Positions 2,250 to 48,806 of a stretch of DNA of 64,000 nt are shown piece by piece. The stretch's first letter is position 1. Each line of letters starts with the position of its first letter. The translations under genes were made by a program, and so were the position numbers. The notes beneath the pieces are model-generated. The model ran no database searches, was not told the origin of the DNA, and saw only the letters and a list, made by a program, of their open reading frames with translations. The stretch is from Candidatus Levyibacteriota bacterium (GTDB lineage Bacteria; Patescibacteriota; Microgenomatia; Levybacterales; UBA12049): positions 72,477 through 136,476 of the forward strand of contig JACQHJ010000001.1 of the NCBI GenBank assembly GCA_016199085.1, read 5' to 3'.

Positions 2250-2373
2250 AAAAAAACTCTCAAAAAGAGAGTCAAGATTTTGTCTTTTTAAGACCTCATC
2301 CTCCAGGCACCGTAGTCTTTCTCGGTTGCCGGTCCGCTACTTTGCGGGCTCTCTTGATGAACAATACTTTAAA
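2250..2373 (-). promoter_or_regulatory. SAM-I-family riboswitch-like leader (SAM-I/IV-like, no P4) with an intrinsic terminator, directly upstream of metK
   Basis: Minus-strand RNA UUCAUCAAGAGAGCCCGC..GCGGACCGGCAACC..GGUGCCUGGAGGAUGAGG carries the P1, AAGAG, GCAACC, GGUGCC and GAUGAG core elements. It is followed by CUCUCUUUUUGAGAG plus a U7 tract immediately before the AUG. Confidence 0.55.
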
Positions 2374-29242: not shown

Positions 29243-29974
29243 TTAGGTTTTAACCAGTCTTGCTTTAATAGCGAGTCTTTTCCAGATTGTCCCAGGAGGC
29301 GTACAGGTAATTAAAGTAATGTAGCTATCATCAAAGCTTTGCTCCAAAACTGATGTGTTATCAGGGTCAACAACCAATATACTTTCAATCCTGTATTTGT
29401 AGGTTACATTTCCGGCACTGACTATTATTTCATCTCCTATGGTTAATTTGTAAAGAAAGGTAAAGATTGTTTTATAGTTTCCTTCCTGGTAAAGCTGGGG
29501 AAGAGTTGAATGGCCAAAAATTACTGCATTTCCGTTATCAGGCGGTACAGCGGTTCCTCCGTAATTTACCAAATGTTTAAGTAAATCTGTATCAACTGCC
29601 GAAACTTCTGCGTCTTTTATGTCAATTTTGGGAATGGATATCTTATAAAAGGCGGTTTTAATATTTTCCGATTTATCATACTTGTAACTTGGAAACCAGT
29701 TCTGGGCATTTGTATAATCAACTCCGGAAAGAGTCTGAGAAGCACCTGTTAAAAGAGAGTTGATCGAGCTTTGGGTTACGAGTGTACTTTTAGGAATCGG
29801 TGAGTTGATTTCGGAATTGGCAAAAACAGGTGCAAAGTATAATTGCCAGGAAATCAAAGGGAAAAAGACGTAGCCTGCTACTAAAATTCCCATAGCAATG
29901 ATAAAAAGGCTAACCAGCTTTAAGAATTTTTTCCTCCCTATTGTTGCTCGTCTTTTTTTATATACCTTTACCAT
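29243..29974 (-). CDS. sortase-family transpeptidase
   Basis: N-terminal TM anchor, FGHS and TLITC motifs. Confidence 0.65.
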   Translation of the reverse strand: MVKVYKKRRATIGRKKFLKLVSLFIIAMGILVAGYVFFPLISWQLYFAPVFANSEINSPIPKSTLVTQSSINSLLTGASQTLSGVDYTNAQNWFPSYKYDKSENIKTAFYKISIPKIDIKDAEVSAVDTDLLKHLVNYGGTAVPPDNGNAVIFGHSTLPQLYQEGNYKTIFTFLYKLTIGDEIIVSAGNVTYKYRIESILVVDPDNTSVLEQSFDDSYITLITCTPPGTIWKRLAIKARLVKT

Positions 29975-32302
29975 TTAATTAGAAGAGATATTAATAGTTA
30001 TATTATTGGGATTTTTAGGAAGCGTTGATGAGACAAAGGGCAGATTGGGTGTTACCCTTATATCAACTTCTTTAACATTTGTCAGATTTGAAAGCATGTT
30101 CTTTGTCTTCACTACATCTGTCCCTGCAATCTGTTTAATAAGGTCTTGGGTATTTATGTTTGGGAAGAGCTTTGCAGAAACCACCAAGTCTGCGGTTATA
30201 TCTTCATTTTTTTGTAATTTTATGTTTTTGGCATTAACGCTAAACTCACTTTTATCAATGGAAAAGGCAGAGTTGTCAAACATTTTCTCAGACAGTTTCT
30301 TTACGTCTTTATTGTCATATGAGAGAAAATCAAAAGAAACAGTTGCGGAAAGACTAACCTTATCTGCCTGGTCGTCCTCTTTTTTATCAAACTTTTCTTT
30401 GGTTAACGTTGTATCAACAAACTGGGGAAGAATTGTTCTTCCATCCTTTACTTTAGATGCAATGTCGCCTTTTGCTTTATCAGACAAGGTTTTAGGAAGT
30501 TCAGATCGAAGTTTTGCCAGATCATTATCTGAAACTACGGTTACATTTTTCTTTGTTCCGCCAGAGAATGCATTGTCATTTTTTCCGGCAACTGTTTTAC
30601 TTGTGCCGACTGTGAATTTGGCGCCACTTGGAAGATTTGATTCTGTTCCTATTTCCTCAGCTGTTACGTTTACGTTTGTAGTTCCGGGTTTTGTCCCTGA
30701 GAAGACGTCTCCTGAGGCAGAAGCTACTTTAATAGAAGAGTCTAAGACAAATTTAAGTCCGGTTGAAGAGGTAATTACGGTTCCTGAGTTTAAACTTACA
30801 GAGTCTGTATCGTTATTAAAGATTGTTACCGTTCCTTTGGCTTTTGTACCGATATCTTTCTTTCCGCTTGCATTAACAGTCGTTGATCCCTCTTCATCAA
30901 CTGGGATAAGTTCTGCTCCTAAGGTGTTGTCGTCAATATTGGTTTGTCCGTTTGGAGTAAAAGTTATACTTTGGGTTTTTTCATCTGTTTTTGGATCAAC
31001 GATTAACGTTACCTTGGCACTTGTTTGGAAAATGAAGGTAAAGAAGATAAAAAGAGCCAAAATTAAACCTCCAAGGGCAAAAGCAATAAATTTAATGTCT
31101 TTTACGCTTCGAACTTTAATTAGAGGAAGAATTAGAATAAAATACTTTTTAAGTAACCCCATTACGTCAATTGAGACAGTTTTAGCTTTGGTTGCAGTTT
31201 CAACCGCAAGTTCCGGTGTTCCATAGCTTTCTTCTTCAAGCTTTACGTCTTGGGGGATCTCGGCGGATCTAAATTCAAGTTCTTCTTTGGGAAGATCGGC
31301 TAGAGGTTCTTTGGCAGATGCTACCTTTGCTACAGGAGGAGCCTGCTTGACAACGTCGCCACTACTAAAGCCGAAAAACTCCAAAGACGAGTCTTTGCCC
31401 ACATAGTCTAATTTTCCCTCACTCTTTTCCTCTTCGAATGGTTTTGGCTTTGCTTCTTCCATTGATTCATCGTCGGTTTTTATCACTTCCGGCTCTTCAT
31501 CCTCTTTTTTGGCAAATTCTTTAGAAAGAGTTTGGTTATGGTCAAAGATAAGAGCCGTTCCCATCTGAGTTGCGGCACCCAGTAGCACTGCTTTTATATC
31601 TGCGTCCTGGGGAAGACTCATAATTTGGGGGATATGTAAAAAGGGAAGTGATTTACTCCACTTGTGGTTTATAAATTCCTGGGTTAGTTCGTCTTCTTCG
31701 CTATCTAAGACAATAATTCTTGCGGGCATTACTTCGGGGATTTGGAAGTGTTTTAAGACGGTATCAACTGTGTGAGTAACTGATTCGTGTATCTCGGATG
31801 ATCTTACCTCCATTATCTTTCCCGCTCTTATTAAAGAAACGGAGAGGTATTTCTTGCCAACGTCGACAAGGATGGCTGTAACCGGCGCTCCTTCATCTTT
31901 GTGGATTAGATTAACAACGCTTTCTGTAAAGACCAAAAAGCCGATTGGATCAAGGGATAATTCTTCTCCTGCTTTTTTAAGTTTCTCCAGATACTCTTTT
32001 TTAATCTTATTGTCTTCAACCCAGGATTCTTTTAAACCAAAAATAGTTTTGTGGGTTTCGATATCCTTAGGGAGTACTTCTTCGGCAGCGGTTATTGCCT
32101 TATCAAGTACGTTTAGGAATTCTTCGGTTGAGGCGTCCTCAATCGTATTGGTGAATTCTTCTTCGGAGTCGTTTAGGTATTTGATTGTGGTACCAATTTT
32201 CTCAAATACCACAGCCTTAACTTTTTCGTTTCTTAAAATAAGAGATAAGAAATATTCGGATTTTTCTTTTTTATCAAGAAAGGGCAGTGTCGAAATATTC
32301 AT
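29975..32302 (-). CDS. PilM-like actin-fold N-terminal domain fused through one TM to a large S/T/N-rich extracellular beta-rich domain
   Basis: KVKAVVFEKIG and AILVDVGKKYLSVSLIRAGKI resemble PilM/FtsA; a mid-protein TM; C-terminal half rich in T/S/N/V/K. Confidence 0.4.
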   Translation of the reverse strand: MNISTLPFLDKKEKSEYFLSLILRNEKVKAVVFEKIGTTIKYLNDSEEEFTNTIEDASTEEFLNVLDKAITAAEEVLPKDIETHKTIFGLKESWVEDNKIKKEYLEKLKKAGEELSLDPIGFLVFTESVVNLIHKDEGAPVTAILVDVGKKYLSVSLIRAGKIMEVRSSEIHESVTHTVDTVLKHFQIPEVMPARIIVLDSEEDELTQEFINHKWSKSLPFLHIPQIMSLPQDADIKAVLLGAATQMGTALIFDHNQTLSKEFAKKEDEEPEVIKTDDESMEEAKPKPFEEEKSEGKLDYVGKDSSLEFFGFSSGDVVKQAPPVAKVASAKEPLADLPKEELEFRSAEIPQDVKLEEESYGTPELAVETATKAKTVSIDVMGLLKKYFILILPLIKVRSVKDIKFIAFALGGLILALFIFFTFIFQTSAKVTLIVDPKTDEKTQSITFTPNGQTNIDDNTLGAELIPVDEEGSTTVNASGKKDIGTKAKGTVTIFNNDTDSVSLNSGTVITSSTGLKFVLDSSIKVASASGDVFSGTKPGTTNVNVTAEEIGTESNLPSGAKFTVGTSKTVAGKNDNAFSGGTKKNVTVVSDNDLAKLRSELPKTLSDKAKGDIASKVKDGRTILPQFVDTTLTKEKFDKKEDDQADKVSLSATVSFDFLSYDNKDVKKLSEKMFDNSAFSIDKSEFSVNAKNIKLQKNEDITADLVVSAKLFPNINTQDLIKQIAGTDVVKTKNMLSNLTNVKEVDIRVTPNLPFVSSTLPKNPNNITINISSN

Positions 32303-34222: not shown

Positions 34223-37200
34223 ATGAATTTAACTAATTTTGTTAAGTATTGCCTTGGATATGTTAAGTTAACGAAACAAAGATCCTTTTTCTCCCAACAA
34301 AAAAATAGCCTAGAGCTTGATAAGGACCAACTAAATCTTGAAGGTTTGCTAAATGGAGAAGCAGATGGTCAATTAGCGGAGATAATAAATTTAAAGACGT
34401 TTTATTCAAATGATCCTAAAAATATAAGTGGGGAAGAAGAAGAGCAGTATCTGAAAGAAAAAAATTTAGCCAACAAAATTCAAGAAATTTACAATAAGTT
34501 TAGAAACGATCAGTTCACCAAAGAAATCGCAATAAACTTTGGATATTTTGAAATAGAATTAACCTTGGATAATGTTAACGAAGAAGATCAAGATGTGGAG
34601 ATTCAAGAAAAAGAAGTCAAGATAAGTAAATATCCTCTTTTTTCTCTTCCAGTAAAAATCGAAACACAAATAGAAAATGGAATCTACAAGTATTATCTTT
34701 ATTATTCGGACCAAGAGATTAAAGTAAATCTTAATGTATTAGAGAAATTATTTGATGAAAATAATAAAGCAGATACTTTTTATCAATTGATAGAAAAGAT
34801 TGGGGAGGAAGAGATCCAGGGCAAATTTTCTTTACCCATAATTGAGCATGACATACTTTATGAGACTTGGGATAAAGTAAGAGCATTATTAAAACTCACA
34901 GATGCAAAATTTGAGGATGAATCCTTCAATTTAGAAGAAAGTACTCTGTCTTTAAATTCAAAAAGTAATTATTTTTTAGCTGAAGATCTTTTAAAATTGT
35001 CTAAAATAGAAGCAGAAGAACTTAAGGGAACAGCGCTAGAGAGTTGGGTAAGTGATGCGGAAACAAATCTGGAAAGCGAAGTACCCAGTGAGGAGCAATT
35101 ATATTTCCCATTTCCATACGATAGATTTCAGCTTAAGTCACTTTCATTATTGGGTAATCAAGCATCCATAATTCAGGGACCTCCGGGAACAGGAAAATCA
35201 GAAACTATTGCTAATATCTTGTGTCATTTGGCTGCTAATGGAAAAAAAGTTTTGTTTATAAGTCAAAAATCCCAAGCATTGAAAGTGGTTAAAGATAAAT
35301 TAAAAAAAACTGGAATTAATTATATGTTTGGTTATGTTCCCAATCCAGCCTCCGCAAGCGTTACCGAAGAAGATGAAACGGATGGAATTGCCCCACAGCT
35401 TACTGCCTTAAATACTTTTATACAGAAGATGACTTATAAATTAAACTATTGGAATGAGAGAAAGGAGACATTAGGGACAATCTCTCAAAGAATAGGAGGA
35501 TTAAAAAAAAGTTTTAACTCAGTTATAGAAGATGAAAGAAATTATTTTACTCTTCATGAAGAACTAAATGAGCTCTTAAGATATAAAAGTGAAATCGGTA
35601 ATAATAAGGACTTTTTTGAAAATGCTGATTCTGAAAAATGGGAGAAGATTAAAGAATTGATTAATCAATTCCAGGCAGTTGATCTTGAATTATTAAAATA
35701 TAAAAAAAATAATAACGATTTCTCAAATAGATTCCCAATAGAACTTTTCCAAAACGAACAATATTCAATTAAGATTAATGAAATATTGAGTAATGTTTCT
35801 AAAACAGGTTATGATAGAAATTCAAAATTTTTTAGATGGTTGAATAATACTAAAAGAAACATAATATTAAGAAATGTAAGATCCGCCCTTCCCTCCGAAG
35901 TTATTAATGAAATCGACAAAATACTAAATAGTGAAATAAGTAAACATGAATCCAGTAGGCAATTAACTGAGTTAAATGAATTTATCATATTTAGAGAAAA
36001 TACTGTCTTAAAGCAGAAGATTAATGAAGAAATTAAAAAAGGTCTAGAGGTAATCGGTCTAAACATAGACCAATATAAAAATATAGAAAAAATAATAAAA
36101 CAGACTGGCATTGATTTCAAAATCTACAAGGATAAGATTGAAAAGATTAACGAGCTAGAAATACAATTGAAAGATTTAGCAAAAAATTATGATCTTTCAG
36201 AATTGAGAAAAAGCATTAACTCTTCTAAAATTAGTAGATCAAATGTTATAAGCTCCTATATTCAAAATATAATTAACAAAAGAATTATGGACAAGTGGAT
36301 GCTTCAAAATATAAAAAGAGTAGTTCTTAGATTAGCAAAAGCATTTGGTAAGTCGAAGAAAGCATACAAAACCTTCGATGAGCTTAGGAGAGATCCGGAA
36401 AATTTCAATTCTATTATTGACTTAGTGCCTGTATGGATTATGGAGCTTGACGATGCGAGTAGAATTATTCCATTAATGCCCAGAATGTTTGATTATGCAA
36501 TTCTAGACGAAGCTTCTCAATGCAATGTAGCCTATACGCTTCCAGTAATGTTCAGAGCTAAAAAAATTGTCTTTGTGGGTGATCCAGAGCAAATGAGAGA
36601 TAGCACGATTCGATTTAAAGCAAACAGGGATTTTGATGAGCTTGCTAAAAAATATAGTATTCCAGGTGATTTGCAAATAAAATCCACTGGAAATGCAGTC
36701 CAGTCAGTACTAGACATAGCCTTACTTAGAGGATTTAATTCTAATAATCTTCAGTATCATTACAGGTCACCAAAGGAACTTATCGGATTTAGTAATCAAT
36801 ATTTTTACAAACCCAAGGGTAAAGAATTAATCGCATTGAACAACAACTATCTTACATATAGAGATACCAACAGGATAATGTTAGTTCACGAAGTTGAGAA
36901 TAAAAAAAATAATAACGAAGAGATAGCAGATAATATTAATATTGCTGAAGCTAAAGCTATATTAAGTTTTTTTAAGGAATTAAGAGAAAATCCTAATACT
37001 AAAGATAAATCTATAGGTATTTTAACCTTCTTTAATGGACAAGCAACTTATATAAGAGAATTATTTGAGCAAGAAGGATTTAAGGAAGAAGACGATAACT
37101 ACATAGTTAGTATTATTGAAGGTATTCAAGGAGACGAAAAAGATATTATTTTGTATTCTTTTGTAATTAGAGAACTCGATCAAAAAAGAAAATATGGAGC

Positions 37201-38026
37201 ATTAACTGGAGAAGGAGGAGATATTTTAGGTGATATAAATAAGGGAAGGGTAAATGTTGCTTTTACTCGAGCTAGATTACAGGTTCATTGCTTTGTTAGT
37301 ATGGACCCACTTCCTGATAGAATTTGGATTAAAAAATTTATAGACTATATTAAAGAAAATGGAGAAATTAATTTCTATTCGAGCGAATTAAATGATTTTG
37401 ATTCTTTTTTTGAAAAAGAATTTTACGCATATGTAAAAGACTCACTCTCAAAGGAGTATCTTATCCAAAACCAGGTAGAAAGTTGTGGTTTTAAGATTGA
37501 TTTTGTAATCTCCTATAAGCAAACAGGTAAAAGACTCGCAATTGAATGTGATGGCCCAACACATTTCGAAAATGAAGTTGATCAAGAGCTCGGTATTTAT
37601 GTTGAAAGCGATGAAGAAAGACAAACTGTTCTGGAGGCGGCAGGTTGGAGTTTCTATAGAATTAAATATTCAGACTGGATAGATAAGAACAAAGTTAAGG
37701 ATGTATTTATAAATGAAATTAAAAATTATTTCAAAATTTCTTCTGAGAGAGAAACTATTATAGCAAAACCCAAAATAAGTAAGTATGAAGGTATAAAGAT
37801 AGATTTCGATTTAAATCCATATTTGAATAACAAAGAAGTTTGGTTCCTGTTGTCGGTTTGGGGTAAAAAGAGTGGTCAATTTATTGGATTTCAAAATAAA
37901 TTTTGTTATTCTCTAGGTAGATATCTTTCTAGGAAACCTGAGTTAACAGTTAAACAAGCAAACTATGGAAGATATCTTCTTAATACAGCAATTAAAAAAG
38001 GATTTTCCCTAGATGGAATTAAATGA
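34223..38026 (+). CDS. DUF4011 + SF1 (Upf1-like) helicase + C-terminal DUF559 / Vsr-like PD-(D/E)xK nuclease fusion
   Basis: Walker A GPPGTGKSE; LDEASQ; VGDPEQM; NYRSPKELIGFSNQYFY; VAFTRAR; C-terminal FKIDFVISYK...LAIECDGPTHF...AGWSFYRI. Confidence 0.8.
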   Translation: MNLTNFVKYCLGYVKLTKQRSFFSQQKNSLELDKDQLNLEGLLNGEADGQLAEIINLKTFYSNDPKNISGEEEEQYLKEKNLANKIQEIYNKFRNDQFTKEIAINFGYFEIELTLDNVNEEDQDVEIQEKEVKISKYPLFSLPVKIETQIENGIYKYYLYYSDQEIKVNLNVLEKLFDENNKADTFYQLIEKIGEEEIQGKFSLPIIEHDILYETWDKVRALLKLTDAKFEDESFNLEESTLSLNSKSNYFLAEDLLKLSKIEAEELKGTALESWVSDAETNLESEVPSEEQLYFPFPYDRFQLKSLSLLGNQASIIQGPPGTGKSETIANILCHLAANGKKVLFISQKSQALKVVKDKLKKTGINYMFGYVPNPASASVTEEDETDGIAPQLTALNTFIQKMTYKLNYWNERKETLGTISQRIGGLKKSFNSVIEDERNYFTLHEELNELLRYKSEIGNNKDFFENADSEKWEKIKELINQFQAVDLELLKYKKNNNDFSNRFPIELFQNEQYSIKINEILSNVSKTGYDRNSKFFRWLNNTKRNIILRNVRSALPSEVINEIDKILNSEISKHESSRQLTELNEFIIFRENTVLKQKINEEIKKGLEVIGLNIDQYKNIEKIIKQTGIDFKIYKDKIEKINELEIQLKDLAKNYDLSELRKSINSSKISRSNVISSYIQNIINKRIMDKWMLQNIKRVVLRLAKAFGKSKKAYKTFDELRRDPENFNSIIDLVPVWIMELDDASRIIPLMPRMFDYAILDEASQCNVAYTLPVMFRAKKIVFVGDPEQMRDSTIRFKANRDFDELAKKYSIPGDLQIKSTGNAVQSVLDIALLRGFNSNNLQYHYRSPKELIGFSNQYFYKPKGKELIALNNNYLTYRDTNRIMLVHEVENKKNNNEEIADNINIAEAKAILSFFKELRENPNTKDKSIGILTFFNGQATYIRELFEQEGFKEEDDNYIVSIIEGIQGDEKDIILYSFVIRELDQKRKYGALTGEGGDILGDINKGRVNVAFTRARLQVHCFVSMDPLPDRIWIKKFIDYIKENGEINFYSSELNDFDSFFEKEFYAYVKDSLSKEYLIQNQVESCGFKIDFVISYKQTGKRLAIECDGPTHFENEVDQELGIYVESDEERQTVLEAAGWSFYRIKYSDWIDKNKVKDVFINEIKNYFKISSERETIIAKPKISKYEGIKIDFDLNPYLNNKEVWFLLSVWGKKSGQFIGFQNKFCYSLGRYLSRKPELTVKQANYGRYLLNTAIKKGFSLDGIK

Positions 38027-38110: not shown

Positions 38111-38788
38111 TTACGAATGGCGGATGCCATACCAGCACATACACCAAGCGTAGTCTTTTTGTTCAATCCTGCTTGTGCAATCCTTGATAGGAAGTATTGG
38201 ATTATTCTTCAATTCATCAGCTGTATATTTTTTGCCCTGATACTTACTGCATTCTTCACAGCAATCCTGCGTTTCAACTTCAAAATAAGTGGGTAAAATA
38301 CCACCGATAGTGCCTAATTGAATTTCATAGTTATGAACGGATTTTAAGTAACTATAAGGGTCATGTCCTCTACGCAATTGATAAAGTGCCTGTGCAAAAG
38401 CTATCATTTTTGCATGGTGTAAAATACTTGATCTCTTGTCATAATCATTCTCAATTTCAGGCGGATGTCCCACCAATCTATTAGAGACTCCCCATACTAT
38501 GTCGTAGGATTTTGGTTTTGTTCCCCATTTTTTGGATAATTCAGCCTCAATTTTTAAATAATCATTAACAGTAGCTCCTAAATATTGGAGTTCTTTAAAA
38601 AAATCTGCCGCTAGGGCATCCTCCTGCGTTAAAATATCTGAATTAAATATGGTTTGTGTGGTTCTAATGAAACATTCTTCACCACATTTTTCGCATTTAG
38701 TCTTTCTCTTAGGTAGTTTCTCAAAAATAGCTCCGCAATATGGGCATTTATTGCGGTTTCTATCATCTTTTTTTTCGAATAGTCCCAT
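38111..38788 (-). CDS. hypothetical protein with an N-terminal Zn-ribbon (CPYCG..CEKCG) and a Cys-rich C-terminus
   Basis: CxxC pairs at both ends; no recognisable family. Confidence 0.4.
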   Translation of the reverse strand: MGLFEKKDDRNRNKCPYCGAIFEKLPKRKTKCEKCGEECFIRTTQTIFNSDILTQEDALAADFFKELQYLGATVNDYLKIEAELSKKWGTKPKSYDIVWGVSNRLVGHPPEIENDYDKRSSILHHAKMIAFAQALYQLRRGHDPYSYLKSVHNYEIQLGTIGGILPTYFEVETQDCCEECSKYQGKKYTADELKNNPILPIKDCTSRIEQKDYAWCMCWYGIRHS

Positions 38789-38848: not shown

Positions 38849-39412
38849 TTAAAACTCTGCATTTACTTCTAGCATTTCCATTCCTTCCTTATCTTCCAAT
38901 GTCAGTGTCTGTCCGCAGCTATCAAAATTTCCAGTTGCAATAACATATTGATCTAAATACTTACTAAAATCTAGATTTCTAACATACGGAAGCCTAACTA
39001 CATCTCCATCATTTTTAATAAGAACTGTTCTTTTATAAGTTTGTCTTGGTGCAAAATAATCTAGGAATGGATCAAGAAGAGGAATCTGCGAAGGAATATT
39101 GTCTTCTATATTTAATACTCTTATTTCTCCAATCTGGGATTGGGATCCTTTATCACAAAGTATTTTTCCTCCTCCGAATATTCCAAATACTGATAAAGCA
39201 AGGAATACTCCCATAATTCCAAGACTTCCTTTTAAAGTAAAGGAAAATGCTTTTTGTTTCTTTATATCTTCCAAAAGCTCAACGATCCTATATAAGGGGT
39301 TTCCTACATGGATATCTATTAAATCATCCTTTGTTTTTGAATAATGCGTATTTTCCTTAAAAAACTTTGAGATAGGATCTTTTGCCATCAATATAATTGT
39401 TACGCCTAACAA
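38849..39412 (-). CDS. hypothetical single-pass membrane protein
   Basis: Central TM GIMGVFLALSVFGIFGGG. Confidence 0.4.
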   Translation of the reverse strand: MLGVTIILMAKDPISKFFKENTHYSKTKDDLIDIHVGNPLYRIVELLEDIKKQKAFSFTLKGSLGIMGVFLALSVFGIFGGGKILCDKGSQSQIGEIRVLNIEDNIPSQIPLLDPFLDYFAPRQTYKRTVLIKNDGDVVRLPYVRNLDFSKYLDQYVIATGNFDSCGQTLTLEDKEGMEMLEVNAEF

Positions 39413-39720
39413 TAATAAATTGCAAGTAGAAATGTAACTTAAATTACCACAATTAAAATATGACTCTTATGTAGTTTGGGCAGGTAAAAATAGTAAAAGA
39501 GACTTATAGGAAATTGCTATAGTTAGGTTAACTTTTGTTTTAGTTTGAAATAGTTATTTGAGGCTATAAAGTATTCAAATATTCGTTTGACAAACCAAGC
39601 GACTTGGATAATTATACATATGTATAAGTAATTTCTTCATATCTTGAAGAAATTTACACAGGGTGTTATAATTGCAGTCCTTTGTACTGCCCCTAAGTAC
39701 ATTAAAATTGAATTTATCAC

Positions 39721-39794
39721 AAAGCCGACGAGATTCGAACTCGTAACCTTCCCGTTAGTAGCAGGTTGCTCTGTCCAGTTGAGCTACGGCTTTG
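39721..39794 (-). tRNA. tRNA gene with a short variable loop, no encoded CCA, and a hand-folded anticodon loop CU-ACU-AA
   Basis: Minus-strand AAAGCCG-UA-GCUC-AACUGGACA-GAGC-A-ACCUG-CUACUAA-CGGGA-AGGUU-ACGAG-UUCGAAU-CUCGU-CGGCUUU-G. Acceptor, D and T arms are canonical; the anticodon stem has an A-A mismatch. Confidence 0.6.
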
Positions 39795-40457
39795 ATAGTT
39801 AAAACTTACTAAAGTGGCCCGTCTAATTAACTAATTAGCCCATACGATTAGAAGTCGTTAGGAACTAAAAGACCATTAGGTAGAGTTTTCCAGAGCTTCC
39901 CATCTACCAAGATGTACGGAAGCTCTGTTGGTATTTCTACCCCGAACTTATCGTCCGTATTCATGATTAACCACCTCTATCTGGCATCGGTTCAAAGAAC
40001 TTAAGCCTGCCCGACTTCTCTTTGTCGTGCATACCAGAGAATAGTCTTTCGACGGACCACTTATAATAACTTTTAAAGTACTTTCCCTTTTTTTACTATT
40101 TAATAATTATTTTTACTTCATGTTAAATAGCAAAAAATAGCTCGACTTGTAAAACCTACAAGGCGAGCGTGTTCCAAGTCGCACCAATGATCAATTGTTT
40201 TAGAAACTTACCTCACCTTGAGGCTTCGTAGGGTCTCATGTCGTTAACTCGACCCTAGCCCTACTAGCCCGTTTCTAAGGCGTTCTACTAGAGCCGAGTA
40301 AACGATATGAAACTCAACTATATATGGTATATCATTTAGCACTCGAAAAATCAACTGCCAACTTACAGTTTCGTGTCTGCCATTACTTGCTCAAACTACA
40401 TAAGTGCCTAAAATATCTCTTGACTTTAAAATTTAAAAATTTTATAGTCCACCTTAT

Positions 40458-40784
40458 ATGGAAATTGAGCCTCCAATACAGCAACTTTTAGATTTTTGTA
40501 GACAAGGAAGAACTTTGGTAACAGGCTTTACAAATAAAACATACAATTTGCCAACCGGCGAACAAAAAACAAGCTACTCTTTTGTTTTAGAAAGACGTAA
40601 CTTAAGAAGTCAGCTCCCGACAACCTTAGATGTATTCAATCAAGCAAGAGTTGTTGTTTCTCACTGCGCCTGGAAACTAAGCGAAACTCCACAAGGAAGA
40701 AGATTGGTAGAAAATATTACTGCGATTGGTAGAGTCAGACCTAACCCAGATCAACCAACAACCATTTTTGGTCTTAGACGCTAG
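40458..40784 (+). CDS. hypothetical protein (108 aa)
   Basis: ORF only; preceded by TTGACT-17-TTATAG. Confidence 0.3.
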   Translation: MEIEPPIQQLLDFCRQGRTLVTGFTNKTYNLPTGEQKTSYSFVLERRNLRSQLPTTLDVFNQARVVVSHCAWKLSETPQGRRLVENITAIGRVRPNPDQPTTIFGLRR

Positions 40785-40804
40785 CCTTTTTATCTAACCA
40801 TCCC

Positions 40805-41143
40805 TTGTTGTATAATTCAAAAATGATTCCGCGTACAGAATTACAACTTGAACATGTAGGTATGGAAGTAGATACATATCAGACGATTGCTGTTTTTAAG
40901 TCTGATTGGGCGAGAAATCCTCAGGATGTAATAACGGCAAAAGACAAATTAAAAAGGGATTTTCATCCCTCAACCTTAAGAATAAGGCAAGATGCCGAAG
41001 TTACAGAAACACCAGATGAGATAGTTTTCCATCCCATACTTGTTTGGACGGCAACCTGGATACATGGGTATACTCCCATAGTGCCTAATCTTGTAGATCT
41101 GCATGAAGATTATCTGTTTCATTACAACCTTCCTGCGTTATAG
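40805..41143 (+). CDS. hypothetical protein (112 aa)
   Basis: ORF only. Confidence 0.3.
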   Translation: MLYNSKMIPRTELQLEHVGMEVDTYQTIAVFKSDWARNPQDVITAKDKLKRDFHPSTLRIRQDAEVTETPDEIVFHPILVWTATWIHGYTPIVPNLVDLHEDYLFHYNLPAL

Positions 41144-41147
41144 ATAT

Positions 41148-41900
41148 ATGTCAAGAAAACTTGAAGCAAGAGAAAACGCCAAAAAAGGAATCAGAGACCA
41201 GGACCCCCGCGTAGAAGTCCCACGCTTTATCCCTCCAATGTTGGTTGGGGAATTAGGAACCAGGAATCTGTCTTTGCTTGACAGGCAGAAACGCTTCTAT
41301 GAGGTTAAGGCAGACGGGTACAGAACCATAGTAACCATTAGGCATGGCGAGGATGGCCCAATAGTCAGGCTATTATCAAAAAACGGAAAAGATATAACCC
41401 AAAGATTTCCTTTGGTTACAACTCAACTTGCAGACATAAAAGATGAAGTCGTATTAGACGGAGAAATGGAAGCTTTAAGACCAAGGCCAGATGCACTGGG
41501 AATAACAACCCAAGAAGAAAACGCCCTTTTTGAGATGTATGGAGGTTTGGTTCCTGACAGGAATTTACTTTCTCTTTCAGCCATTCATTTAAGACACGTA
41601 GATTACAGACTTAGGTTATTTGATATCCTGTTTTTAAACGGAAGGCATTTGACTACAAAGCCTCTTTCGGAAAGAAAGCTTTATTTAAATGAAGTTGTTC
41701 CGGATGAGTTAAGCGCAGTTTCGACTGTTCCATATTTTGAATATACCTCCGATGCAGCACTGCTTAGGCTTTTAAAAGCAGTTGATAAATTCGGTCTTGA
41801 AGGAATGGTAGCTAAAAGAACAGACAGCGTTTATACGCCGGGTAGAAGAAGCGACAGATGGCTAAAGATAAAAAGAACACCGCAACAACCAATCCACTAG
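41148..41900 (+). CDS. ATP-dependent DNA ligase, nucleotidyltransferase domain only (no OB domain)
   Basis: PPML start, motif I YEVKADGYR, motif III DGEME, motif IV EGMVAK and motif V GRRSDRWLKIK; the ORF ends right after motif V. Confidence 0.7.
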   Translation: MSRKLEARENAKKGIRDQDPRVEVPRFIPPMLVGELGTRNLSLLDRQKRFYEVKADGYRTIVTIRHGEDGPIVRLLSKNGKDITQRFPLVTTQLADIKDEVVLDGEMEALRPRPDALGITTQEENALFEMYGGLVPDRNLLSLSAIHLRHVDYRLRLFDILFLNGRHLTTKPLSERKLYLNEVVPDELSAVSTVPYFEYTSDAALLRLLKAVDKFGLEGMVAKRTDSVYTPGRRSDRWLKIKRTPQQPIH

Positions 41901-41954
41901 CTCTTGCCCTATAGTTTGCCTTTTAGAAACATTTTCTGTATAATCCCATCTGGC

Positions 41955-43451
41955 ATGGCAGTAAGAAATGAAGCAATAGAGCAATCCGCACAAGCAATCT
42001 CTTTTCCTTTCGCACACGGTACAAGGCCTGAAACAGCTCGTATGTTAATTGACGCACGGGAATCAGGAGTCTTAGAAGGGCTAAGACCGGCAGTACGCGA
42101 ACTAATTGATAGATATTACGGAACAGATGCAAGCCTAAAAGATCTTGGCGTTGCTGCAGGAATGAGCACAAGTCACATCGGCGTAAGACTTAGACAGGGA
42201 CTGGAAGAAATAAGAGAACTTTTGGGAGACGAAGTTACGGAAAAATACCCAAAAGAAGCAACTCTACTTAAGTTAGCCATGCCAAGACCACCAAGAGATT
42301 TAGATCAGGTTCAAGCGCCTTTTCCGATTTCTGTAAGACTTGACACACCTCAAAAAGAAACAAGACACAAAGAGGCAATGCAAAGAGTTTTTGAAAGACC
42401 CCCTGTCTATTTTAAGTCTTCAGAATATTTGCTCAGAAGATATGTTCCTCCTAAAATGCCTGACCAAGAACCCCATGGAGAATTAATGCCTATGACCCAA
42501 AGGGTATTAACTTTAATAGGAAGGGGACTTACCTACGCTGAAATTGCTCCGATAGTCGGAATGTCAACGAAAATGGTTGGGTTCGTAATAGGAAGAAAAG
42601 TTATCCGTCCGGTCATGCAAGTTTCTAACCCGCATGAAGCATTGGTAGTAAGTTTAACAAAGGGTCTTGTTAGTCTTCGCGAAGCCTCGAAAGGGTTAAA
42701 TTTATCAGACGAAAATGTTGACAGTCTATCAATTCGGGCAGTAGAAGTATTAATTGCTGATACAGTTGATAATCTTGGAATGACCAGAAAGCAGATAGGA
42801 GAAAGAATAGGTAATACAGAAAGTGCAATCGAAGACCTCAGGACAAGAATATATCAAAAACTTGGAGTATTAAGTAAAGCTCAGGCCACTGTATTTGTTA
42901 TGGCATATGTTAAGAAAGCTATGTATGAGAGAAGATATCCTATAAAAGATACGATTGAAGGTGGGGGATCTTTTGAGGATTATCATGCACCTGAAGCTCC
43001 TGATATTCAATACACTATTGATTATTTAAAAAATGTTGGAATTAGTGAGCGTGATAAGCAGGCATTTCTTATTCATTTCCTTTGGTCTGAAGGTAGGGGT
43101 ACATACGCTTTGATTAGAAGACATTTACGGTTAGAAGACAGACCAATAATAGAAGTTTTGCTTAATAGAGTAATCGATGCAGAAGTGGATCCGAGATATT
43201 CAATTCCTGTTTTGGATATCTATCACAATATTTTTGCTCCCATCGAACTTGCAAGAGTTATTTTTTTCAACAATAAAGGAGAAAGGACTTATGAAAGATT
43301 TAGGGCGTTGGTAGATATCTGTAGGAAAAGAATAAGAGAAGAGCATATAACAGGCTATAAGCCTTCTACGAGAACAGAGCTTAATATTGAGGCACAAAGA
43401 CTTCTTGATCAGAGAAAAGCGGCAAGGCAGGAGGTTGTAGTTTTTGACTAA
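41955..43451 (+). CDS. regulator with three tandem sigma70-r4 / LuxR-type HTH units and an unknown C-terminal domain
   Basis: LKDLGVAAGMSTSHIGVRLRQGLEEIR, LTYAEIAPIVGMSTKMVGFVIGRKV and RKQIGERIGNTESAIEDLRTRIYQKLGV. Confidence 0.5.
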   Translation: MAVRNEAIEQSAQAISFPFAHGTRPETARMLIDARESGVLEGLRPAVRELIDRYYGTDASLKDLGVAAGMSTSHIGVRLRQGLEEIRELLGDEVTEKYPKEATLLKLAMPRPPRDLDQVQAPFPISVRLDTPQKETRHKEAMQRVFERPPVYFKSSEYLLRRYVPPKMPDQEPHGELMPMTQRVLTLIGRGLTYAEIAPIVGMSTKMVGFVIGRKVIRPVMQVSNPHEALVVSLTKGLVSLREASKGLNLSDENVDSLSIRAVEVLIADTVDNLGMTRKQIGERIGNTESAIEDLRTRIYQKLGVLSKAQATVFVMAYVKKAMYERRYPIKDTIEGGGSFEDYHAPEAPDIQYTIDYLKNVGISERDKQAFLIHFLWSEGRGTYALIRRHLRLEDRPIIEVLLNRVIDAEVDPRYSIPVLDIYHNIFAPIELARVIFFNNKGERTYERFRALVDICRKRIREEHITGYKPSTRTELNIEAQRLLDQRKAARQEVVVFD

Positions 43452-43474
43452 ACCTCAAGTGATATAATTAAAAA

Positions 43475-44356
43475 ATGAAAATCCTCTTCGATACAGATAT
43501 CGGTTCAGACATAGATGATGCCTTATGCCTTGCCTATTTATTGGCTAATCCCAGCTGTGATTTATTGGGTGTTACTACGGTAACCGGAGAGGCTGAGAAA
43601 AGAGCGATGATTATTAGCGCCTTGTGTCAAAACGCGGGAAAGAATATACCTATTTTTCCAGGAGCAGAGACTCCTCTTTTGATTTCTCAAAAGCAAATCC
43701 AAGCTCCTCAGGCTTTAGCTTTGGATAAATGGCCGCACAAAAAGTCTTTTCCTAAAAGGGAAGCAGTACGTTTTCTGCAAGAGACTATTCGTAACAATCC
43801 TCACGAGATAACTCTGTTGGCAACAGGACCATTAACTAATATTGCACAGCTTTTTAAAATTGATGAAGAAATACCTTCACTTTTAAAAGGTTTGGTGCTT
43901 ATGTGCGGGGCGTTTAATGATAAGGCTGCTAACTTGGGTACTTGTGATTCTGTTGAGTGGAATGCTCTTGTCGATCCACATGCTGCAGATATAGTTTATA
44001 AATCAGCTGTTAAATCCCATAAATCGGTGGGGTTAAATGTTACATGTAAGGTAAAATTAAAGAAAGAGGTTTTAAAAAAACGATTAAGTGTTAGTCATTT
44101 ACTTACTCCTATAGCTGACTTTGCTGAGATTTGGTTTCAAGAAGAAGGCGAGGCTACTTTCCACGATCCACTGGCAGCCATCACAATTTTTAACCAAGAT
44201 GTATGTGTTTTTGAAAACGGAAAAGTAGAAGTTGAATTAATAAGTGAAGAACTCAAAGGAATGACCTATTTCACCCCTGGAGAGGGTCAAAATCAAGTTG
44301 CTTTACACGTTAATATAGATAAGTTTTTCGACAGTTATTTTGCAGTGTTTAAGTAA
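43475..44356 (+). CDS. inosine-uridine preferring nucleoside hydrolase family
   Basis: N-terminal DTDIGSDIDDA (DxDxxxDD) motif. Confidence 0.85.
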   Translation: MKILFDTDIGSDIDDALCLAYLLANPSCDLLGVTTVTGEAEKRAMIISALCQNAGKNIPIFPGAETPLLISQKQIQAPQALALDKWPHKKSFPKREAVRFLQETIRNNPHEITLLATGPLTNIAQLFKIDEEIPSLLKGLVLMCGAFNDKAANLGTCDSVEWNALVDPHAADIVYKSAVKSHKSVGLNVTCKVKLKKEVLKKRLSVSHLLTPIADFAEIWFQEEGEATFHDPLAAITIFNQDVCVFENGKVEVELISEELKGMTYFTPGEGQNQVALHVNIDKFFDSYFAVFK

Positions 44357-44416
44357 TAACTATATGCGGTTATTATATAGAGGATTGTTGAATACATAAC
44401 TACCTCATAGTAATTA

Positions 44417-44445
44417 TTGACATCTGTTACATTTTTTGCTACAAT
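44417..44445 (+). promoter_or_regulatory. strong sigma70-type promoter TTGACA-17-TACAAT
   Basis: Near-consensus hexamers about 300 nt upstream of the 44745 ORF. Confidence 0.5.
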
Positions 44446-44616
44446 TTACCCAACAATTAAAGAGTGCGTTTAAAGAAGAAGAGTAAGTTTAATATTAGAT
44501 TTTAGCAAGTGATGACAGCTGAAAGCATCATAATCGAAAATTAACTGAAAAGAGCTTCTTAGCACAGAACCGAAGAAAGCATTTGCAAGTAGGTTTATAA
44601 ATGAGCTATCTATAGA

Positions 44617-44733
44617 CTCTGTCAAGGTTGACACAGAGCTTTTTTAGTACAAAATAGATAGGAATAAAGGTGGTACCACGGGAATTCCCGTCCTTGTTTC
44701 GAAAGTAATTTCGAAATGAAGACGGGTTTTTTT
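44617..44733 (+). promoter_or_regulatory. structured 5' leader with two intrinsic-terminator-like hairpins and a competing antiterminator palindrome
   Basis: Hairpin 1 is CUCUGUCAAGGUUGACACAGAG plus U6. Hairpin 2 is CCCGUCC...GACGGG plus U7. The ACGGGAAUUCCCGU palindrome shares the CCCGUC strand with hairpin 2. Confidence 0.45.
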
Positions 44734-44744
44734 ATGGAGAAAAT

Positions 44745-45875
44745 ATGAAAGAATTTGGGCAACATTTTTATATTCCGGAAGGAATTTTAGTTCAAGGACC
44801 AAGCATAGCTAACGGTTCTGGCTCTTTTGTGGCAGAAGCGCATAGTGATGAGGTATTAACGCCAGGTGCAATTAATTGTTTGAGAGATCAATTCGCGATA
44901 GACATGGAACTAGTTGCAGCTGATCTTAAAAGCGATGGATTAGCAAGGCAATATGCTGGCTCGTTATTTAAAAAACTAGTAGGTAATGGAGCAAATACAC
45001 TTGAACAGCTAGTAATAGCTGGATCACAGGAGTTTTACCATGTTGGTAAATATGTTTTAGGGCCATTGGCAGTAAGTGTTGTAGATACTGTTTTAAAAGG
45101 GTGTAATGGAAAAGCCATCTTTCCTGCAAGGGATGCAACTCCCTTTTTCCATATCGCTAAAACTCTCAAGAAGCTTAATCCAGATGCTTATCCAGTAGCC
45201 ATGGATGATATTGTAAATCCTGATTTTAATAGAACGCTATGGGGAGTAGAAGATGAAGAAGATCAAGATCCAGAAGGTGAAGTAATGTCAGTTTCCCACC
45301 CATTAGTACAAAAACTTTTATCTCAAATGGGATTTTTCTCTGATCAGCCTAAAACTTTTATAGAAGTAGGTTGCTGGGGTTCAATGGTAGATGAGTTAAA
45401 TAAAGCAATGAAGAAAGGTGATATACCCACAGAAGAATATTCTGTTTATTTCCTATATACACATTTGCCAAATAATATTTATGGCTTTACCAATATTGTT
45501 GGAGAAAATATACCCGAAGACGTACTTGAGACAATAGCAGATACATGGGAAGCATTCCCTAAATTTTACAAAAAGGTAAAAAAATTAGTCGAAGAAGACG
45601 GCATAGTAAAAGGTTCACGAGTGTTTGTCAACTCACCTTTTTTGCAACCTTGGACAGAAGCTGCTTTACAGGGTGTTGAAGATGCAGCAAGTGATTTCAT
45701 TTGTCAAGGACAAGTTATAAATCCTCAAGATGAGTTGTTAAAACTTTGGCGATTATCTATTCAAGCGCAGTCTGGCCAATTTACTGGAGTATTACCTGGA
45801 CATACAAAAACATGGTCTAAAGGAGAAGAATGGAAAGCTAATTGGAAATGGGGGAGGGTTCCGCCATTAAAGTAA
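44745..45875 (+). CDS. hypothetical protein (376 aa), first gene of the leader-controlled operon
   Basis: ORF only; GC noticeably above the local background. Confidence 0.4.
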   Translation: MKEFGQHFYIPEGILVQGPSIANGSGSFVAEAHSDEVLTPGAINCLRDQFAIDMELVAADLKSDGLARQYAGSLFKKLVGNGANTLEQLVIAGSQEFYHVGKYVLGPLAVSVVDTVLKGCNGKAIFPARDATPFFHIAKTLKKLNPDAYPVAMDDIVNPDFNRTLWGVEDEEDQDPEGEVMSVSHPLVQKLLSQMGFFSDQPKTFIEVGCWGSMVDELNKAMKKGDIPTEEYSVYFLYTHLPNNIYGFTNIVGENIPEDVLETIADTWEAFPKFYKKVKKLVEEDGIVKGSRVFVNSPFLQPWTEAALQGVEDAASDFICQGQVINPQDELLKLWRLSIQAQSGQFTGVLPGHTKTWSKGEEWKANWKWGRVPPLK

Positions 45876-48439: not shown

Positions 48440-48786
48440 ATGCAAGTTATTAAATCTAAAGACAAAAGCTGGGAAGAAAACCAGGGCACAGTAAAAAGAT
48501 TTTAATTGATGATATAGATAAAAATAATGTTGTAGTTCAAGAAGTTAAAATAAAGCCGCAAGAAAGTGCTAGGACACATTTCCATAAAATCCAAACAGAA
48601 GTATTTTATTTTCTCACCCATAACGGGTACTGGGTTATGAATGGAGAAAAAAGGGAATTTGGAATTGGAGATATCCTAATCATAGGACCAATGGATGAAC
48701 ATTGTGTGGTAAATAGAACAAATAAAGATTACTTATATCTTGCTTTTAAATATAACTACGATTCTAAAGATATCTACTGGAAATAA
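48440..48786 (+). pseudogene. cupin-domain gene split by a frameshift in an A5/T4 homopolymer near 48495-48505
   Basis: Frame 1 gives MQVIKSKDKSWEENQGTVKRF then a stop. The shifted frame continues LIDDIDKNNVVVQEVKIKPQESARTHFHKIQTEVFYFLTHNGYWVMNGEKREFGIGDILIIGPMDEHCVVN, a cupin beta-barrel pattern. Confidence 0.5.
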
Positions 48787-48806
48787 AATGATATAATTTT
48801 TGGGCA

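Follow-up and report, generated by a model that had tools for sequence, protein, structure and literature searches.

Do four neighbouring genes, one of which codes for an ATP-dependent DNA ligase that lacks a whole domain, form a functional unit, or did they come together as separate pieces? The genes lie in a stretch of 64,000 nucleotides (the window), part of a 143-kb contig from a Candidatus Levybacteria metagenome-assembled genome (MAG), a member of the candidate phyla radiation (CPR/Patescibacteria). The four open reading frames (ORFs) that the original prediction, made from the DNA letters, had placed here are all real, at 40458-40784, 40805/40823-41143, 41148-41900 and 41955-43451. They comprise two small ORFs (ORF108 and ORF106), an ORF for a ligase nucleotidyltransferase (NTase) domain, and a gene for a protein with several helix-turn-helix (HTH) units. 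The prediction had seen in them a mobile-element or phage remnant, or a small nucleic-acid-processing module, rather than chromosomal housekeeping. Our analysis points to a different answer: the cluster is probably a set of unrelated pieces piled up in an island that varies between strains and is flanked by alaS and a nucleoside-hydrolase gene, with no functional module among them, and its origin is best explained by ordinary gene flux and decay in a CPR genomic island.

The ligase ORF (HY344_00595; 41148-41900, plus strand; 250 aa) appears to be a 3'-truncated gene for an ATP-dependent ligase of the LigD/LigC type, which codes for the NTase domain only, with motifs I-V intact. A Pfam scan gave PF01068 (E=2.3e-30), covering profile positions 18-204 of 204; no other Pfam family matched, and PF04679 was among those missing. 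Alignment with the best full-length homologues showed that the ORF keeps every invariant NTase residue (K54/D56/G57/R59, D104-G105-E106, F158-D159, E218-G219...K223 and W238/K240/K242) and that it ends 8 residues past motif V. The nearest full-length homologues are metagenomic LigD-like proteins, 36% identical to the ORF product, and nearly all of them carry PF04679; we found no relative above 36% identity among 5.8 billion proteins. The best curated model was the NCBIfam profile TIGR02779 (nonhomologous end joining ligase domain; E=1.5e-32, 113 bits). The match spans positions 15-190 of the 302-position profile, and since nothing beyond position 190 is present, the score stays below the cut-off of 227.75. 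The best match in the PDB was 1vs0, and in the PHROG collection the product matched phrog_114.

We searched for an oligonucleotide-binding (OB) domain with a hidden Markov model (HMM) built from 44 OB domains of ligase homologues. The whole window was translated in six frames, and each segment free of stops was scanned with all filtering disabled. No OB domain turned up in any frame (the best E-value, 0.44, came from an unrelated position); beyond the window, the MAG was not searched for an OB or Ku gene. The alignment and the HMM search together bear out the predicted NTase-only ligase that stops after motif V and has no OB fold. They also rule out, for the window, that the OB domain was lost by a frameshift or is supplied in trans. 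A Ku domain was absent from the 19 neighbouring proteins scanned.

With the LigD ligase domain and LigC type of ligase (Mycobacterium tuberculosis Rv0938 LigDom, PDB 1VS0; TIGR02779), the ORF shares the NTase fold and motifs I, III, IIIa, IV and V. Unlike those enzymes, it lacks an OB domain with motif VI as well as POL and PE domains, there is no Ku gene among the neighbours examined, and the ORF is a singleton in a CPR genome. On this comparison we assign the ligase to the LigD-LigDom/LigC group both by descent and by its predicted way of working, with two defining features lacking, namely the OB domain and a score above the curated cut-off.

The point at which the ligase breaks off coincides with the start of another unit, the gene for the multi-HTH protein (HY344_00600; 41955-43451, plus strand; 498 aa). 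Homology to other ligases reaches as far as motif V (K242, nt 41873). Other loci with the HTH gene match the window in nucleotide sequence from 41904, in the -35 region and 3 nt past the ligase stop (blastn against locus L002), up to the HTH stop codon. A breakpoint must therefore lie within the 30 nt from 41874 to 41903. Read from these two alignments, the ligase ORF stands out clearly as a truncated fragment at a rearrangement breakpoint. A promoter scan recovered a block (TTGCCCTATAGTTTG ... TATAAT) at 41904-41944 on the plus strand, conserved in L002, L005 and L007, and within it, at 41916-41944, the TTGCCT-17-TATAAT promoter that had been predicted for the HTH gene.

The neighbours of the HTH gene vary from locus to locus. 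In L005 and L002 the gene order is HAD, cupin, HTH, Zincin_1; a rhodanese gene precedes the HTH gene in L007, and in L006 the HTH homologue comes directly after the intergenic region of orf187. The window itself carries HAD and Zincin_1 genes whose products are 85% and 84% identical to those of L005, and there the cupin/Zincin_1 junction (48787-48806) is an empty HTH site, which the HTH gene fills in L005 (1804-3400) and L002. Since the homology is bounded by the promoter and the stop codon and the neighbours differ, the HTH gene behaves as an autonomous promoter-plus-gene unit found at different sites. The HTH proteins are only 40-54% identical to each other, compared with about 85% in the flanking proteins, so the family seems to relocate and diverge quickly. 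The single module proposed by the original prediction does not fit a gene that has its own conserved promoter and, elsewhere, other neighbours, which never include a ligase. The cupin gene of the window (48441-48786, plus strand) is frameshifted near codon 17-20, whereas the L005 gene is intact at 115 aa; it is a pseudogene or contains a sequencing error.

The HTH protein had been described as one sigma70-region-4-like and two LuxR-type HTH units. The first of these held up as Sigma70_r4 (42.9 bits; cut-off 24.1), and one GerE/LuxR unit scored above its cut-off (26.9 bits; cut-off 23.5), whereas the middle HTH is weak, r4_2-like and sub-threshold (22.8 bits; cut-off 25.7). Its C-terminal domain is specific to the family. 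Sigma region 2 is absent (no PF04542), and TIGR02937 was matched at the C-terminal end of the profile only, with a score of 38.7, below the cut-off of 42.9; with region 2 missing, a sigma factor of the sigma-70 family is ruled out. Like other repeat proteins that combine LuxR/GerE HTH units with sigma-70 region 4, the protein has tandem Sigma70_r4 and GerE units. It differs from them by the lack of a sigma region 2, receiver or ligand domain and by its own C-terminal domain of about 160 aa. From its domain matches we place it in the multi-HTH LuxR/sigma-r4 class, as a predicted DNA-binding regulator.

Relatives of the HTH protein are few. A word-index search returned one, 54% identical, and HMMER against 1.84 billion representatives returned about four of full length with 40-54% identity, each on a short metagenomic contig. 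Among more distant relatives, GerE is repeated 3-6 times (in the homologue P0098, GerE scored 48.5 bits), and a scan of GTDB genomes with the HTH profile found no relative. A PDB match to 8vd6 ('CAP repeat') was discarded as irrelevant, the entry being a de novo designed protein. The protein would thus be a stand-alone regulator with its own conserved promoter, from a very small, fast-diverging CPR family whose members occupy different chromosomal sites.

We compared the whole locus with L009, a 27.8-kb contig of a close relative whose nucleoside hydrolase is at least 90% identical to that of the window and whose orf187 product shows 86% protein identity. A spacer of 67 nt separates orf187 from the nucleoside-hydrolase gene in L009. 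In the window the interval between the two genes, 39392-43459, extends over 4.07 kb with the tRNA, an ORF-free segment, ORF108, ORF106, the ligase ORF and the HTH gene, and has no counterpart in L009. Blastn homology stops at 39391, the outer end of orf187 (38849-39391, minus strand). The left edge of the interval (39392-39452) consists of conserved divergent intergenic DNA beside orf187, which aligns with the DNA upstream in L006 (TTACGCCTAA.AAT.ATAAATTGCAAGT) and in part with the L009 intergenic region. At the right edge, synteny with L009 is restored from the nucleoside-hydrolase gene and its promoter onwards (PF01156; 43460-44356, plus strand), where L009 9986-12003 aligns with window 43460-45514 at 91% nucleotide identity.

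The difference between the two genomes extends beyond this interval. Between alaS and orf187, L009 has a GIY-YIG gene, a LexA-like gene, a type I restriction-modification system, YunG and SNase, and the corresponding stretch of the window has a low-GC gene for a 1267-aa helicase-nuclease and orf225. This difference in gene content marks the interval from alaS to the nucleoside hydrolase as a hot spot of gene turnover. The view that the cluster is not chromosomal housekeeping is borne out, as the close relative has nothing of the entire tRNA-to-HTH segment; synteny likewise gave no sign of a core locus, the cluster not being conserved and the genes between alaS and the nucleoside hydrolase being different ones in L009.

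Upstream of the ligase lie the two orphan hypothetical genes, ORF108 (HY344_00585; 40458-40784, plus strand; 108 aa) and ORF106 (HY344_00590; 40823-41143, plus strand), each annotated as the single member of its cluster at 90% identity. Unknown proteins of 108 and 112 aa had been predicted here; both are present, but the second most likely starts at the ATG at 40823 and has 106 aa, the form annotated at NCBI, rather than at the TTG at 40805 that gives 112 aa. The codon-usage scores (0.126 for ORF108, 0.16-0.18 for ORF106) are higher than in 99% of off-frame pieces (99th percentile 0.069) and fall low in the range of real genes (5th percentile 0.119). A promoter scan placed a promoter-like TTGACT-17-TATAGT at 40420-40448 on the plus strand, 9 nt ahead of the ATG of ORF108, and a TATAAT at 40811-40816 on the same strand ahead of ORF106. 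In ORF108, ORF106 and the HTH gene, as in most genes of this genome that come first in an operon, a TATAAT-like box precedes the ATG by 6-10 nt and a Shine-Dalgarno motif is missing. Because of their host-like codons and host-style promoters, the two small ORFs look like expressed, host-adapted genes.

Neither small protein had a match in Pfam, NCBIfam, PHROGs, PADLOC, the PDB or IMG/VR, and they show neither internal nor mutual homology. A word-index search for homologues of the concatenated pair missed even the queries, which the database holds; this null is unreliable and we discounted it. Single-sequence AlphaFold2 (AF2) models were unreliable as well (predicted local distance difference test, pLDDT, of 60 for ORF108 and 47 for ORF106), and a Foldseek search of the PDB with the better one (pLDDT 60) gave nothing at E<=0.001. 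The C-terminal sequences 'IFGLRR' and 'FHPSTLRIRQD' had suggested a divergent ligase OB domain in one of the two proteins, an idea we rejected on the hhalign probabilities of 0.2% for ORF108 and 4% for ORF106. We conclude that ORF108 and ORF106 are lineage-specific orphan genes, linked to the ligase by adjacency alone.

How the ligase came to be where it is can be pictured as follows. The ORF would represent the 5' ~70% of a gene of the LigD-ligase-domain/LigC type, whose OB domain was removed by the same rearrangement that set the gene against the HTH promoter, and the relic would be young enough to remain an open frame. We estimate that an AT-rich frame of 750 nt stays open under neutrality only to roughly <=2% divergence; the open frame fits a recent event, because the closest relative found, about 9% diverged, does not have the segment. 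In ATP-dependent DNA ligases the OB domain, with motif VI, is needed for self-adenylylation, step 1 of the reaction (PMC1807946). Because its OB domain is absent, the ligase probably cannot charge itself, and the product is most likely inactive or barely active. We consider it probable that the ORF is a relic fragment.

Several observations weigh against a relic, and against the account of the locus that includes it. The ORF has 250 codons without an internal stop or frameshift and with all catalytic residues intact. Its codon-usage score is host-like (0.22, compared with a mean of 0.27 in real genes), and its start follows the stop of ORF106 after 4 nt, an operon-like spacing. Isolated NTase domains of some ligases keep partial activity. 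The search for an OB domain was confined to the window. The rearrangement is compatible with either order of events, in which the ligase fragment was put upstream of the HTH gene or the HTH gene moved in. A contig from another run (L003), 99.9% identical to the window outside one clustered patch, gives the only ligase variation seen: seven substitutions within 28 nt at the motif IV region (L003 54-81, window 41804-41831), with four synonymous and two conservative changes (M220V and T225R). This pattern is a hint of purifying selection or of exchange with a functional copy by recombination, and the patch may be a recombination tract from a second ligase allele.

Some of these observations would also suit a functional split or minimal ligase, in which the NTase-only protein works with ORF106, ORF108 or both in place of the OB domain. 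The partner would bind nucleic acid or position the leaving group, as the OB domain normally does, and the proteins together would serve in repair or nucleic-acid processing on a small scale. No motif of the NTase is missing and its ORF is intact, the spacing to ORF106 is 4 nt and the polymorphism is mostly synonymous; in addition, the 112-aa form of ORF106 is predicted to be beta-rich and carries a weak motif-VI-like stretch, FHPSTLRIRQDAEV. We nevertheless regard such a system as unlikely. Neither small protein resembles a ligase OB domain, as seen from the hhalign values given above and from HMM scores of about 1 bit, and their models are of low confidence and without a fold match at E<=0.001. 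The trio of ORF108, ORF106 and NTase is missing in close relatives, each of its genes is a singleton, and the truncation falls at the synteny breakpoint. Moreover, the contigs of the two nearest full-length ligases (P0002 and P0004) show no small-gene neighbourhood in common; their genomic contexts are unrelated and without conserved small partners, in a comparison of neighbours made by Pfam annotation only.

In kinetoplastid REL1 the OB domain is provided in trans. DraRnl-type ligases, with OB modules N-terminal to the NTase or otherwise non-canonical, would offer a precedent for a split enzyme (PMC1807946); T4 Rnl2 1-249 and DraRnl, with its N-terminal OB-like module (PMC1807946), are examples of an NTase core that has a module other than a C-terminal OB or performs partial reactions alone. 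The window differs from Rnl2, DraRnl and REL1 in that no partner module was detected in it by sequence or model and in that the truncation sits at a rearrangement breakpoint. The Chlorella virus ligase and bacterial Lig E (PMC4220977) are likewise small and without accessory DNA-binding domains, but retain both NTase and OB, whereas the window ORF has the NTase alone, which is insufficient for step 1 (PMC1807946). That the ligase is functional with a partner of any kind is, in our judgement, decidedly unlikely. More doubtful still is a stand-alone ligase NTase kept in a CPR bacterium, either with an orphan small protein as a non-homologous partner in trans, or with an activity limited to pre-adenylylated ends or to AMP transfer. 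A truncation at the breakpoint, rather than a designed minimal enzyme, is the best reading of the stand-alone NTase.

The other explanation of some standing, also an improbable one, is that a prophage or integrative element once entered at the tRNA gene and left the segment as its remnant. Such an origin would account for the absence of the segment from L009, for its GC content of 0.41 against a background of about 0.37, for the phrog_114 match of the ligase, and for the neighbouring orf225, which occurs on other contigs, at least one of them with a large serine recombinase. However, there is no integrase or recombinase among the ORFs at 26.8-49.5 kb, and a repeat scan of 33.5-47 kb found no tRNA-derived direct repeats, so that the att-like repeats of the tRNA 3' end expected under the original prediction are missing. 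IMG/VR scans with the ligase, ORF108, ORF106, the HTH protein, the tRNA arm, two RNA segments and the inverted repeats described below were all null, and PADLOC had no match for the cluster. Blastn of the 2.5-kb segment against phages and plasmids matched the tRNA alone, the sole matches among phages (INPHARED) being annotated tRNA-Arg genes. The cluster also lies on the 5' side of the tRNA, whereas tRNA-targeted elements insert at the 3' end, and its genes use the host promoter style. No prophage feature was found at the locus, and the idea of a phage remnant is unsupported: there is no integrase, there are no att repeats, and PHROG, PADLOC and IMG/VR gave no relatives beyond generic ligase or HTH matches.

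The tRNA itself argues against an attachment site, for it is contained in an insertion. We identified a MITE-like insertion (after miniature inverted-repeat transposable elements) of 947 bp, at 39454-40416 with its direct repeats, which encodes no protein. It is bounded by 26-nt terminal inverted repeats (TIRs; CTTATGTAGTTTGRGCARGTAA) at 39462-39487 and 40383-40408, complementary at 22 of 26 positions, and these are directly flanked by perfect 8-bp direct repeats (TAAAATAT) at 39454-39461 and 40409-40416. The TIRs are the sole inverted-repeat pair of such quality in the window. In 150 simulated windows we found eight such pairs, none with a flanking 8-bp repeat, and at random positions in the real window a flanking 8-bp repeat occurred 0.2% of the time. 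TIRs with a flanking direct repeat, as a target-site duplication (TSD), are the signature of a transposition event. When the element and one repeat copy are removed, a divergent intergenic region of 111 nt remains between orf187 and ORF108. Since the tRNA lies inside the TIR/TSD element, it is cargo of a small non-autonomous element and not an attachment site.

With bacterial MITEs and small non-autonomous derivatives of insertion sequences (IS), the insertion shares the 26-nt TIRs, the 8-bp TSD, a length below 1 kb and the lack of a transposase. It differs in its cargo, a tRNA gene plus about 600 nt that fold strongly, and in having been seen as a single copy: neither the 64 kb nor 15 fetched loci nor IMG/VR contained a second one. 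In its outer end (GGCACT...) the right TIR presumably resembles the ends of the IS6/IS26 family, as does the 8-bp duplication. A decayed transposase or pseudogene in the ORF-free segment was considered and rejected, as no stop-free segment had a Pfam match. The tRNA and the ORF-free segment would then be parts of one transposon-like insertion that landed in the orf187/ORF108 intergenic region, unrelated to the arrival of the cluster.

The tRNA (39719-39794, minus strand; anticodon ACU) was found by ARAGORN and scored 58.3 bits with the Rfam tRNA model. ARAGORN labels it 'Ser' on the ACU anticodon only; it has no long variable arm (the variable loop has 5 nt), an A1-U72 pair and G73, and is tRNA-Arg-like. 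These features suggest an Arg(UCU)-like tRNA in which position 34 is A, and with this unusual anticodon it may be a variant or an inactive copy. A GTDB scan with the tRNA anticodon arm gave one chance match, in a gammaproteobacterium, which is not a tRNA. The ORF-free sequence (39795-40382, minus strand) folds strongly: compared with shuffled controls, the z-scores on the minus strand were -6.5 (39795-40075) and -5.2 (40125-40420), and -5.1 and -4.3 on the plus strand. The ORF-free stretches matched no Rfam family, and no relatives were found for covariation testing.

Two further explanations do not survive. An artefact, whether a full-length ligase frameshifted in sequencing or assembly or a contig that is chimeric, is suggested by the stop codon close behind motif V and by the fact that MAG contigs can be chimeric, but it is effectively refuted and scarcely credible, as the ligase-HTH junction recurs in Logan contigs of two other runs (SRR12113384 at 100% and SRR12113383 at 99.6% identity), no OB-like coding lies downstream in any frame, so that the sequencing frameshift which would have refuted the original prediction is absent, and the DNA past the ligase stop is the conserved HTH promoter. 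It is just as implausible that read-through of a TAG codon joins the two ORFs into a ligase-HTH protein: positions 41148 and 41904 are in the same frame, with a lone stop at 41898-41900 and none further before the ATG at 41955, but the DNA between is a promoter conserved at the nucleotide level, third codon positions included, the same single-stop layout occurs with an unrelated cupin gene in L005 though not in L007, the window gives no evidence of TAG recoding (long ORFs end normally), and the shared frame with its single TAG, for which the chance expectation is about 0.1, is probably a coincidence.

Some other features of the window were recorded. The low-GC gene at 34223-38026 (plus strand; GC 0.30) codes for a 1267-aa superfamily 1 (SF1) helicase that carries an MTES_1575/DUF559 nuclease domain at its C-terminus. 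In PADLOC the protein matched the candidate defence protein PDC-S37 best (E=4e-70), with Hhe as a further match; at this place L009 has its type I restriction-modification system. Next to it, orf225 (38111-38788, minus strand) codes for a zinc-ribbon-like hypothetical protein, with copies at least 90% identical on 10-kb contigs of other metagenomes (L010 and L011). The neighbours of these copies differ and have no Pfam matches, and the last gene of L011 codes for a large serine recombinase (PF00239/PF07508). At 29243-32302 (minus strand), between alaS and a gene for a glycosyl-transferase-3-like protein, lies a gene for a 775-aa protein with a weak Baseplate_J-like match, adjoining a sortase gene. 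At the corresponding position beside alaS, L009 has a 771-aa gene with no Pfam match recorded, a possible counterpart.

Across the window, many genes that are first in their operon have a TATAAT 5-12 nt before the ATG and no Shine-Dalgarno motif, and genes internal to operons have AAGGAG. This suggests that leaderless or short-leader mRNAs are widespread in this Levybacteria genome. A SAM-I/IV riboswitch (55.6 bits) is present at 2266-2365 (minus strand), upstream of a 364-aa ORF at 1155-2249.

The novelty of this locus is limited to two things, a new truncated protein of a known ligase family and a new, very small family of HTH proteins. An NTase-only protein would matter more if it were active, since self-adenylylation depends on the OB domain in every ATP-dependent DNA ligase characterised so far; it would then be a bacterial case of the 'undifferentiated stand-alone adenylyltransferase' stage that has been proposed for ligase evolution. 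The more unusual object at the locus is the TIR/TSD element that bears a tRNA together with a large structured non-coding segment. Within 4 kb the locus combines part of a gene with orphan genes, a regulator that changes its place and a small transposon-like insertion, and so illustrates how small CPR genomes gather and erode foreign DNA at a hot spot.

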